From Escherichia coli (lineage in GTDB: Bacteria; Pseudomonadota; Gammaproteobacteria; Enterobacterales; Enterobacteriaceae), in NCBI RefSeq assembly GCF_003334765.1, contig NZ_QOWT01000090.1: a stretch of 1,014 nucleotides of DNA. The stretch is one strand, 5' to 3'. Positions within the stretch are counted from its first letter, which is position 1, and the number at the start of each line of letters is the position of its first letter. Of this stretch, positions 1-1,014 are shown in pieces. Made by a program: the position numbers and the translations under genes. Below the pieces are notes generated by a model. It had not been told where the DNA came from and did not search any database. It was given only the letters and a program-made list of their open reading frames with translations.

Positions 1-136
1 CAGCATCCTGCAGTGGCGCAATATACTCACTGAATTCCTGGATGTAGAACTGTGTGGTGACGGTCTTCCAGCCATTCGGCTCCTGCTGTATCGAAGCATA
101 CCAGGCTATTTCAATATCGCTATGCTGCGGCAGCAT
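1..136 (-). CDS. Partial CDS (start codon at 136-134, continues past window position 1): tail-fibre-assembly (Tfa)-like protein, N-terminal 45 codons
   Basis: Minus-strand translation from ATG (complement of 134-136) is MLPQHSDIEIAWYASIQQEPNGWKTVTTQFYIQEFSEYIAPLQDA, open to the window edge. An in-frame TAA (complement of 137-139) lies directly upstream, so the ORF cannot start earlier. A Shine-Dalgarno-like AAGGGG (complement of 141-146) sits 4 nt before the ATG. The segment EYIAPLQDA resembles the conserved ..EHIAPLQDA.. stretch of lambda-type Tfa proteins as I recall them. Unverified by search; only 45 codons are visible. Confidence 0.5.
   Translation of the reverse strand, partial: MLPQHSDIEIAWYASIQQEPNGWKTVTTQFYIQEFSEYIAPLQDA
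123..132. repeat. Left copy of 10-bp exact direct repeat TGCTGCGGCA, lying inside the first codons of the minus-strand Tfa-like gene
   Basis: Plus-strand 123-132 tgctgcggca is identical to 894-903. With one 3-nt indel (GCA unit) the match extends to 123-136 versus 894-904, which includes the start codon on the minus strand. Confidence 0.6.
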
Positions 137-192
137 TTAACCCCTTGTAATTCATCGCCATAATTGATTTAATTCACAAATAAAACTATAAC
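137..192. promoter_or_regulatory. AT-rich divergent intergenic region between the minus-strand Tfa-like gene and the plus-strand methyltransferase; candidate sigma70-type promoter for the methyltransferase
   Basis: 56 bp at about 27% GC (15/56, hand count) between two divergent start codons. Best plus-strand candidate: -35 TTGATT (164-169), 17-bp spacer, -10 TATAAC (187-192). A weaker alternative is -35 TTGTAA (145-150) with -10 TTTAAT (168-173). Hexamer matches in AT-rich DNA are weak evidence. Confidence 0.3.
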
Positions 193-861
193 ATGGTGAA
201 ATTAATGAAAAAAAACACAGATGATGGGGCTAAAATTTACACACCACTTACCCTAAAGCTTTATGACTGGTGGGTTTTGGGAGTATCAAATCGGCTTGCA
301 TGGGGATGTCCTACAAAGGAACACCTTCTTCCACACTTTCTGGAACATTTAGGTAACAACCATCTGGATATTGGTGTTGGAACTGGGTTTTACCTTACTC
401 ACGTACCTGAGAGTAGTCTGATATCTTTAATGGATTTGAACGAAGCTAGCCTGAACGCGGCATCTACAAGGGCTGGGGAATCAAAAATTAAACATAAAAT
501 TAGCCATGATGTTTTTGAACCTTATCCCGCGGCGTTACATGGTCAATTTGATTCCATTTCCATGTTTTACCTTCTTCACTGCCTGCCTGGAAATATATCT
601 ACAAAAAGCTGTGTAATACGCAATGCGGCGCAGGCCTTAACTGACGATGGAACTCTATACGGAGCCACAATTCTTGGCGATGGAGTTGTGCACAATAGCT
701 TCGGTCAAAAACTGATGCGCATTTACAATCAGAAAGGCATCTTTTCAAACACAAAAGATTCCGAAGAAGGCTTAACACATATACTCTCAGAGCATTTCGA
801 GAATGTTAAAACCAAGGTTCAAGGTACTGTAGTAATGTTTTCCGCTTCAGGGAAAAAATAG
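193..861 (+). CDS. Class I SAM-dependent methyltransferase (Rossmann fold), substrate unknown; alternative start at 205 gives 218 aa
   Basis: Single long ORF in the provided track (222 aa, stop TAG 859-861). Residue numbers count from Met at 193. Motif I LDIGVGTG at aa 58-65 (nt 364-387). Acidic post-I residue D81 in SLMDLNE. Motif II GQFDSISMFYLL at aa 117-128 (nt 541-576). Motif III-like LTDDGTLYGATIL at aa 149-161. N-terminal aromatic segment YDWWVLGVSNRLAW precedes motif I. No DPPY/NPPY or PC/ENV motifs. Confidence 0.85.
   Translation: MVKLMKKNTDDGAKIYTPLTLKLYDWWVLGVSNRLAWGCPTKEHLLPHFLEHLGNNHLDIGVGTGFYLTHVPESSLISLMDLNEASLNAASTRAGESKIKHKISHDVFEPYPAALHGQFDSISMFYLLHCLPGNISTKSCVIRNAAQALTDDGTLYGATILGDGVVHNSFGQKLMRIYNQKGIFSNTKDSEEGLTHILSEHFENVKTKVQGTVVMFSASGKK
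195..199 (+). promoter_or_regulatory. Shine-Dalgarno-like GGTGA serving the internal in-frame ATG at 205
   Basis: GGTGA matches the GGUGA portion of the extended anti-SD complement and lies 5 nt before ATG 205-207. No SD-like sequence precedes ATG 193-195 (upstream is caaataaaactataac). Confidence 0.35.
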
Positions 862-868
862 CATCCAA

Positions 869-901
869 CCGCAGCACGTTCTTGCTTAAGACGTGCTGCG
901 G
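869..901. terminator. Perfect 11-bp inverted repeat (stem 869-879 / 891-901, 11-nt loop 880-890) between convergent genes; candidate terminator, better oriented for the minus strand
   Basis: ccgcagcacgt (869-879) is the exact reverse complement of acgtgctgcgg (891-901), 8 of 11 pairs G:C. On the plus strand no T-tract follows (cataatccc). On the minus strand the stem is followed by ttggatgc then tattttt (complement of 853-868), a T-tract displaced by 8 nt. Non-canonical in both directions. Confidence 0.4.
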
Positions 902-903
902 CA
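894..903. repeat. Right copy of 10-bp exact direct repeat TGCTGCGGCA, overlapping the right arm of the hairpin and lying just beyond the stop of the minus-strand Tfa gene
   Basis: Plus-strand 894-903 tgctgcggca is identical to 123-132. On the minus strand it reads ATG CCG CAG CA (complement of 894-904), against ATG CTG CCG CAG CA at the left-hand gene start. Confidence 0.6.
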
Positions 904-915
904 TAATCCCAATGA

Positions 916-1014
916 TTACTCCCTGACAGGGTTCGTAGGCCACTCAATATCAGGTGCAGTTGATGTATCAACACGGTTCAGCAACACCCGATACTTTTTC
1001 CAGGCTTCCAGCAA
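916..1014 (-). CDS. Partial CDS (C-terminal 32 codons plus stop; N-terminus lies beyond window position 1014): tail fibre assembly protein (Tfa) family
   Basis: Minus-strand translation entering at 1014 is [32 protein letters not shown], ending at TAA (complement of 916-918). This closely matches the C-terminus of phage lambda-type Tfa proteins as I recall it (..[33 protein letters not shown]). Recalled from memory, not searched. Confidence 0.65.

Follow-up and report, generated by a model that had tools for sequence, protein, structure and literature searches.

The closest described counterparts of the locus reported here are the tfaD-ybcY-tfaX segment (b0561-b0563) of the cryptic prophage DLP12 in Escherichia coli K-12 and the b-region boundary of phage lambda, where the tail-fibre assembly gene tfa (orf-194) is followed by a hairpin and by ea47. 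Two wider comparisons are of use, one with phage morons, which are autonomous promoter-gene-terminator units in late regions (for example lambda lom and bor), and one with the fungal methyltransferases VerB/DovB, AurB, CtvB, AstB and VrtF, whose genes belong to polyketide synthase clusters and whose target is an alpha-pyrone or aromatic hydroxyl. We analysed a stretch of 1,014 nt of E. coli DNA (contig NZ_QOWT01000090.1), the whole of which is called the window and is numbered from its first letter; listing and translation of its open reading frames (ORFs) give three coding features, namely a plus-strand ORF of 222 amino acids (aa), ybcY, and a minus-strand frame at each edge. The window is the tfaD-ybcY-tfaX corner of a lambda-like E. 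coli prophage, a locus that has already been catalogued: the DLP12 segment of K-12 (582,0xx-583,0xx) is ~99% identical to it across all 1014 bases, is annotated as tfaD, ybcY and tfaX, and has the same gene order, orientation, spacers and hairpin, but its ybcY is a pseudogene and its tfaX is annotated with 61 aa instead of the 89 aa of the ORF in the E. coli 042 locus. Lambda shares the 3′ end of tfa and 50 nt downstream (86.8% identity), and its next gene is likewise convergent with tfa and oriented like int, but ea47 stands in place of ybcY, and neither tfaX nor a second copy of the tfa 3′ end is present. We consider it highly probable that, taken as a whole, the locus marks the point where, in a lambdoid prophage of the DLP12/ompT-carrying type, the late (tail-fibre) operon meets the accessory b-region and that ybcY is a self-contained moron cargo gene, a reading that the comparisons below support.

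That this DNA belongs to a prophage had been presumed in a preliminary description made from the letters alone, and the wider context confirms it. In E. coli 042, a locus identical to the window is terminal in a complete lambdoid prophage with the order portal, capsid, tail, J, lom, stf, tfa, window, fragments and truncated ompW; extension of the context thus reached tfa-stf-lom-J-tail-head genes on one side and an ompW fragment nearby. The full-length tfa ORF of 042 (042 extract 20916-21500) encodes 194 aa, matches the Pfam family Caudo_TAP over model positions 1-130 of 131 (E 2.7e-44) and PHROG 105 (tail fiber assembly; E 2.7e-100), and its start overlaps the stop of a 1004-aa stf gene, with lom and J preceding as well, and the right-edge ORF is a genuine tail fibre assembly gene. 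The window segment is carried by viable phages, among them 2G7b, ev243, PhiR26_1 and Turner. The genes of 2G7b and Turner follow one another as int, ompT, alpha/beta hydrolase, tfaX, ybcY, tail-fibre genes, lom and J; PhiR26_1 has this order from ompT onward, and the gene is annotated there as ‘putative uncharacterized protein YbcY’. Of 5426 complete E. coli genomes, 3790 contain at least 80% of the window, many genomes have 100% identical copies, and a spread sample of E. coli genomes revealed at least four contexts: ompT-hydrolase-tfaX-ybcY, ompT-appY-tfaX-ybcY (the K-12 type), ybcY directly adjoining ompT, and tfaX-ybcY-tfa-stf in other prophages. The neighbours of ybcY are tail-fibre genes, ompT and the hydrolase gene. 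In the viable phages the hydrolase gene, which encodes 464-494 aa and occupies 1614-3098 and 5260-6654 in two of the extracts, separates ompT from tfaX; K-12 has appY at this place, and the stretch ompT-hydrolase-tfaX-ybcY-tfa is at least 80% present in 1167 E. coli genomes. Downstream of tfaX in 042 (extract 19153-19770) there are a DUF4376 (tail-fibre-type) pseudogene fragment and a truncated ompW; the 042 prophage is therefore placed in ompW, its end littered with tail-fibre debris.

At this junction ybcY is the first gene of the accessory b-region; it converges on tfa and stands exactly where ea47 stands in lambda. A direct repeat of 227 nt, consisting of the last 177 nt of tfa and the following 50 nt including the hairpin, brackets window 44-866; its copies are 89-90% identical and spaced 1049-1050 nt apart (repeat families D1 and D2), and the left one (D1) covers 19847-20043 of the 042 extract and ends at window 43. 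Homology to lambda covers window 867-1014 and stops at 867, nucleotide homology to Citrobacter is limited to window 50-873, and strain 7CC, which is without ybcY, has one hybrid repeat copy in which a K-12-type tfaX side is joined to a 2G7b-type tail module. Because these three comparisons agree independently on the boundaries, they indicate that the unit is an 823-bp module, window 44-866, which can be gained or lost via the conserved tfa 3′ ends. Nearly all of ybcY is missing from phage Ayreon, which has lost window 167-825 and still has 50-166 and 826-1014. Relatives without the methyltransferase gene, which the preliminary description had thought worth comparing, were found in lambda, in 7CC and, by deletion, in Ayreon. 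Its picture of a gene inserted between two structural genes did not survive, since tfaX is not structural and ybcY comes first in the b-region after tfa.

The module carries ybcY with a native promoter and ribosome-binding site and, divergent from it, what is left of an 80-aa gene. In the sequence of events that we propose, it was captured from an enterobacterial chromosomal or island gene. The tfa 3′ end and hairpin now flank it on both sides as direct copies with 89% identity, recombination in these tfa repeats moves or removes it, and joining of the left copy to the stump has given the chimeric 89-aa ORF tfaX. In this way the module shows how conserved tfa 3′ ends serve as linkers for moving cargo. 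Further rearrangements were seen beside the module. In Turner (extract 7893-9549) the window homology ends at 901, and ybcY is separated from tfa/stf by ~1 kb of functionally unannotated DNA and a gene for a DNA invertase; this region may be a tail-fibre switching system. In the extraintestinal pathogenic E. coli (ExPEC) strain TUM13770 (extract 3001-5982), DLP12 is cut down to ~3 kb with the order argU-int′-tfa′-ybcY-ompT; the remnant holds a tRNA-Arg gene, an integrase fragment and a 375-bp tfa fragment, and only ybcY and ompT are intact. Of tfaX, nothing but the first nine codons is left in an ExPEC strain.

The left-edge frame (window 136-1, minus strand) is the start of tfaX, which opens at ATG136 with a Shine-Dalgarno-like AAGGGG directly upstream and runs past base 1 (MLPQHSDIEIAWYASIQQEPNGWKTVTTQFYIQEFSEYIAPLQDA). 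The 89-aa ORF matches Caudo_TAP at model positions 75-130 only (E 6e-25) and lacks the fibre-specific N-terminal part of Tfa, and its residues 3-37 match PHROG 3893 (E 3e-7). Both edges had been taken for Tfa-type proteins, and the Caudo_TAP matches uphold this for the right and for part of the left, but the left ORF is a chimera with the C-terminal domain only, and the IAPLQDA motif, earlier assigned to the N-terminal region of Tfa, marks the start of its C-terminal domain. A full-length partner of 80 aa is found in Citrobacter freundii, where it starts with MMPRRSDIEIAWYASIQQEPNG and is divergent from a ybcY homologue of 90% identity, and Klebsiella phage Kp4882-3 has a 79-aa homologue of the gene from which the tfaX N-terminus came. 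Hence, because these partners exist, the alignments indicate that tfaX is a recombination chimera, made from the stump of the 80-aa gene and a second Tfa C-terminal domain, and no structural gene. It has several alternative C-termini and is truncated or altered in about one-third of the best-scoring 80 of 116 loci from a family-alignment scan of IMG/VR. In C. freundii (5307-5941 of the extract) the 80-aa gene is followed by a frameshifted S24-peptidase/UmuD-like gene, and the same pair, with 79 and 130 aa, is present in Kp4882-3 (extract 5004-5571).

The preliminary description of a complete plus-strand gene with an AT-rich upstream region and a downstream hairpin was accurate: the G+C content is 26.5% in the spacer, 41% in ybcY and 49-51% in the tfa parts, and the hairpin folds at -23 kcal/mol on the plus strand. 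We aligned the upstream regions of seven homologues with 56-100% protein identity from phage and chromosomal contexts. ATG193, from which ybcY is annotated, is not conserved in this alignment and is replaced by AGG, TAG or AAG, but ATG205 and the Shine-Dalgarno-like AGGTGA before it are conserved; moreover, the PHROG 2132 alignment and most homologues start at residue 5 of the 222-aa ORF. The true start of ybcY is thus probably ATG205, giving a protein of 218 aa and correcting ATG193. Two upstream blocks, CTTGTAAT (144-151) and TTGATTTAATTCAC (164-177), are conserved in homologues down to 56% protein identity, and we infer that they are the -35 and extended -10 elements of the ybcY promoter (Table 1), with a predicted transcription start at ~180 and a Shine-Dalgarno-like GGTGA at 195-199. 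Because the blocks are conserved in phage-borne and chromosomal homologues alike, the promoter region appears to travel with the gene, which is the key feature of a moron. The heptamer TAATTCA occurs twice within the blocks, at 148-154 and 170-176, 22 nt apart, and the pair could be the binding site of a regulator, instead of or besides promoter elements. For K-12, genomic SELEX (systematic evolution of ligands by exponential enrichment) found a peak of sigma-70 holoenzyme and an H-NS site in the ybcY/tfaX spacer, and the promoter proposed in that study is TTGATT-17-TATAAC, corresponding to window 164-192 (PMC3946193). A third possible promoter, TTAACC-16-CATAAT at 137-164, came from a generic scan that performed no better than on shuffled sequences. 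We propose that ybcY would be transcribed rightwards from its own sigma-70 promoter in an AT-rich, H-NS-bound spacer, and that this transcription would be independent of the late operon and run into the hairpin that is common with tfa.

The hairpin lies between the convergent tfa and ybcY; its plus-strand fold of -23 kcal/mol has z = -5.4 and is equalled by none of 200 shuffled sequences, and on the minus strand it folds at -28.5 kcal/mol. It has no T-run or U-tract on either strand, and a terminator scan found no intrinsic terminator. In lambda, the hairpin is present downstream of tfa without a methyltransferase gene, and for this reason we assign it to the tfa module and not to DNA imported with the methyltransferase; a degenerate copy is found 3′ of tfaX. 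Thus the moron layout proposed in the preliminary description holds in that the gene is absent in relatives and its promoter region travels along with it, but not in respect of the hairpin. Like a moron, ybcY is an extra gene absent in close relatives, has a lower G+C content and a conserved promoter region, and lies beside tail genes; unlike a typical moron, it has no terminator of its own, the hairpin being common with tfa and without a U-tract, and it stands after the last late gene and not between two functional structural genes. Lambda has a further copy of the hairpin between ea47 and ea31, at ~24161-24202 (extract 1407-1448), which is 85.7% identical to window 862-902, and from these copies the stem-loop appears as one that recurs at module boundaries of lambdoid accessory regions. 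On the minus strand, hairpin 870-901 is base for base the terminal stem-loop of Rfam CssrB, a Shigella chromosomal small RNA (sRNA), at model positions 149-180; only the hairpin matches CssrB, so the same stem-loop is joined to other upstream sequences elsewhere. This identity hints that the hairpin can mark the 3′ end of leftward transcripts.

Sequence and predicted structure identify YbcY as a class I S-adenosylmethionine (SAM)-dependent methyltransferase. It matches the Pfam families Methyltransf_12 (PF08242, E 6.3e-9), PF13489 (E 1.6e-6) and PF13649 (E 7.4e-6) and, over residues 5-222, PHROG 2132 (E 8e-157); the Pfam families are generic, and the earlier view of a small-molecule-type SAM methyltransferase without assigned role holds. 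Motif I (GxGxG) is present as HLDIGVGTG. Across 104 aligned family members D77, the acidic residue of the SAM-binding pattern at the end of strand 2, and H125, G153 and D185 are invariant, all of them kept in YbcY, and Y12, Y20-D21, W33, C35 and an HCLPG motif are nearly invariant. The AlphaFold2 model of YbcY (predicted local distance difference test, pLDDT, 93.7) has alternating strands and helices in a Rossmann-like alpha/beta arrangement. A fold search of the PDB gave more than 1300 methyltransferase matches at E <= 0.001, of which the best were small-molecule or lipid methyltransferases; template modelling (TM) scores were 0.55-0.66 to many small-molecule methyltransferases, with no specific match. 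Sequence searches of the PDB, by single sequence and by profile, returned generic methyltransferase cores only, and in NCBIfam only CpaM, RquA and PmtA were reached, at 13-17 bits against cut-offs of 162-390. The family contains 197 clusters at E < 1e-30 (representatives clustered at 50% identity), its members are mostly ~220 aa long and come from bacteria and fungi, many of the fungal ones being 40-47% identical, and a look-up of cluster names gave generic names only.

The nearest named relatives point to a more definite activity. In AFDB50, VerB (A0A1V6NVX3) aligns to YbcY with 36% identity, a TM score of 0.93 and E 1.4e-25, an AFDB entry from Lachnellula suecica named ‘N-methyltransferase vrtF’ aligns with 41% identity and a TM score of 0.90, and another named neighbour is a lichen ‘putative O-methyltransferase’. 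VerB differs little from DovB, and DovB, like its homologues AurB, CtvB and AstB, O-methylates the hydroxyl of an alpha-pyrone (PMC12312803), and VrtF is the O-methyltransferase of the viridicatumtoxin cluster (PMC4294208). These fungal enzymes resemble YbcY in length (~220-250 aa), in the Methyltransf_12 fold and in aligning over the full length; they differ in their biosynthetic neighbours, which ybcY does not have. We conclude that YbcY is a small-molecule methyltransferase, most likely an O-methyltransferase; as a cytoplasmic enzyme, it would act like these closest characterised relatives and most probably O-methylate a hydroxyl on a small hydrophobic metabolite or xenobiotic, and it would serve the lysogen without a role in tail-fibre assembly. 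Among the longer family members scanned against NCBIfam for informative fusions, the only informative one was a metagenomic protein of 719 aa with a C-terminal cytochrome P450 of the terpene/polyketide-tailoring type (E 2e-78), which fits a family role in small-molecule tailoring. YmfD of the e14 element had been named as a relative worth aligning; it is likewise prophage-borne, 221 aa long and generically annotated as a methyltransferase, but no pairwise similarity to YbcY was detectable (BLASTP E = 14), and it lies at the other prophage end, by ymfE, lit and int and away from tail-fibre genes.

The Salmonella and Enterobacter homologues with 56-65% identity are stand-alone chromosomal genes without phage neighbours, and closer homologues are found in island or prophage-end contexts. 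The chromosomal homologues show where the phage gene originated, and we conclude from these relationships that ybcY was probably captured by the phage from the enterobacterial gene pool. For the E. coli gene itself, neither a lack of Tfa similarity at the edges nor a non-phage locus, which the preliminary description had named as grounds for giving up its view, was found. Between ybcY copies in E. coli, Citrobacter, Salmonella and Enterobacter, the ratio of nonsynonymous to synonymous substitution rates (dN/dS) is 0.09-0.23, indicating purifying selection. The intact 218-aa ORF is present in all of the best 80 of 116 loci of the IMG/VR scan, in which broken ybcY copies would rank lower; these 80 are all near-identical E. 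coli prophage copies and add no diversity. The K-12 copy has a 2-bp deletion at window 207-208 (ATGAAAAAAAAC to ATAAAAAAAC), and the window copy is intact. This deletion destroys the conserved ATG205 and is the reason why ybcY of K-12 is annotated as a pseudogene; it lies at the head of an A8 run, likely a slippage site.

Table 1. Positions of the features in the window
Feature	Position	Strand	Description
tfaX codons 32-45	1..43	-	start of left repeat copy; duplicated Tfa C-terminal domain opens (IAPLQDA...)
tfaX first 31 codons	44..136	-	from 5′ end of unrelated 79-80-aa gene (PHROG 3893 type)
Divergent control region tfaX/ybcY	137..204		AT-rich, 26.5% G+C
Candidate ybcY promoter	145..173	+	-35 TTGTAA (145-150), 17-nt spacer, extended -10 TGaTTTAAT (165-173)
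ybcY	205..861	+	218 aa from ATG205 (probable start); annotated from ATG193, 222 aa (193-861)
Right repeat copy, in-window part	867..1014	-	tfa 3′ end and downstream hairpin
G+C-rich 33-nt hairpin	869..901	both	arms CCGCAGCACGT-loop-ACGTGCTGCGG, between convergent tfa and ybcY
tfa 3′ end (K-12 tfaD)	916..1014	-	last 32 codons and stop, side-tail-fibre assembly gene

Several points weigh against a self-contained cargo gene with O-methyltransferase activity. The spacer accommodates three different promoter assignments, and given the H-NS binding, the gene may be largely silent. As the U-tract is absent, the hairpin may not act as a terminator. The identity to the characterised fungal enzymes is just 36-41%, no polyketide synthase or other pathway gene lies near ybcY, and the PDB neighbours of YbcY include N- and C-methyltransferases, so that it may perform N- or C-methylation instead of O-methylation. 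The gene is broken in K-12, truncated variants occur elsewhere, for example in clusters of 161 and 130 aa and in a 194-aa protein of S88, and its retention beside ompT could be due to hitch-hiking and not to selection. In the literature searched, no function is assigned to ybcY or tfaX; the matches were the promoter SELEX, a negative result with a Keio mutant, and descriptions of context.

A further reading extends the cargo reading and makes YbcY a lysogenic-conversion O-methyltransferase, phage-captured and acting on one specific small molecule from the host or the environment (a toxin or signal of phenolic, quinone or pyrone-like nature, for example); E. coli would have kept it by selection, together with ompT, long after decay of the DLP12 type. 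This would explain why the gene is intact in ~70% of genomes and even in a 3-kb prophage stump, and we regard it as a tentative possibility. The kinship of YbcY with O-methyltransferases of the VerB/AurB/CtvB type is a testable lead in this respect, and if a substrate were defined, a function would be assigned to a gene that is among the most widespread of the uncharacterised prophage genes in E. coli.

Conversely, ybcY could be a functionless, decaying passenger that is swept along as tail-fibre DNA recombines and through its linkage to ompT. The 2-bp-deletion pseudogene of K-12 and the known truncated protein clusters fit such a view, as do its deletion from Ayreon, which still plates on K-12, its absence from lambda and strain 7CC, and the binding of H-NS to the spacer. 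A Keio ybcY mutant had no phenotype in one assay, though the allele concerned is already the K-12 pseudogene (PMC2408971). The selection data speak otherwise: the dN/dS values hold across genera and contexts, every invariant residue of the family is kept, and the ORF is intact in the best 80 of 116 IMG/VR loci while the neighbouring tfaX is often broken. Moreover, ybcY is intact in a prophage remnant stripped of almost everything else, and its promoter blocks are conserved. Hence we judge a mere passenger to be unlikely.

A target in a macromolecule would tie the enzyme more closely to the phage: YbcY would then methylate DNA or RNA, in anti-restriction or anti-defence, or the tail fibre or its chaperone, which would explain the adjacency to tfa. 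DNA methyltransferases are common in phages, ybcY adjoins tail-fibre genes in several of them, and in Enterobacter, P2-type tail fibre and Caudo_TAP genes are found at a distance of 3 kb from a homologue of 69% identity. However, the 218-aa YbcY has neither a (D/N/S)PP(Y/F/W) nor a PCQ motif, no DNA, RNA or protein methyltransferase family rises above noise in Pfam or NCBIfam, and the structures that YbcY matches best by fold are methyltransferases of small molecules, lipids and polyketides. Its close homologues stand alone on chromosomes, away from phage genes, and the fungal members sit in polyketide clusters. The PADLOC defence models gave only a non-significant match of YbcY to mad2 (E 0.0033, 14 bits) and no match for tfaX. 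These observations make a macromolecular target very improbable. Membership of YbcY in a defence system was also considered as such and was rejected, nothing in PADLOC being significant.

The idea that the two Tfa-type ORFs and their interval form a host-range switching cassette, or its remnant, of the Mu G, P1 C or e14 P type, with ybcY incidental, can draw on the two tfa 3′ ends, the DNA invertase between ybcY and tfa in Turner and the pairing of tfa with pin genes in other E. coli prophages, but we give it next to no credence and reject an invertible segment because the repeats are direct, with no bracketing inverted repeat, no invertase is adjacent in 042, K-12 DLP12, 2G7b or PhiR26_1, and tfaX has neither a fibre-specific N-terminal domain nor an alternative fibre tip before it.

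The practical value of moron cargo at this junction is small, as the locus is annotated in K-12 and thousands of genomes and a moron reading is new in no kind. The useful gains are the correction of the start to ATG205, the reading of tfaX as a chimera, the repeat-bracketed module of 823 bp and the O-methyltransferase lead.

Two existing annotations overlap these features. RefSeq lists a 45-aa ‘hypothetical protein’ (WP_001309429.1) at window 806-943 on the minus strand, where it overlaps the 3′ end of ybcY, the hairpin and the tfa stop, and it is in all likelihood spurious. Rfam IS009 (RF02111), described as a candidate sRNA, has a full-length match in the tfa coding sequence (225 bits, gathering score 117) and a match of 112 bits in tfaX; the regions are window 959-1014 and 1-113 on the minus strand and, in the 042 extract, 20959-21157 (tfa) and 19910-20113 (tfaX). 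This ‘RNA family’ seems to reflect conservation of the sequence that codes for the C-terminal half of Tfa and not a separate RNA gene.

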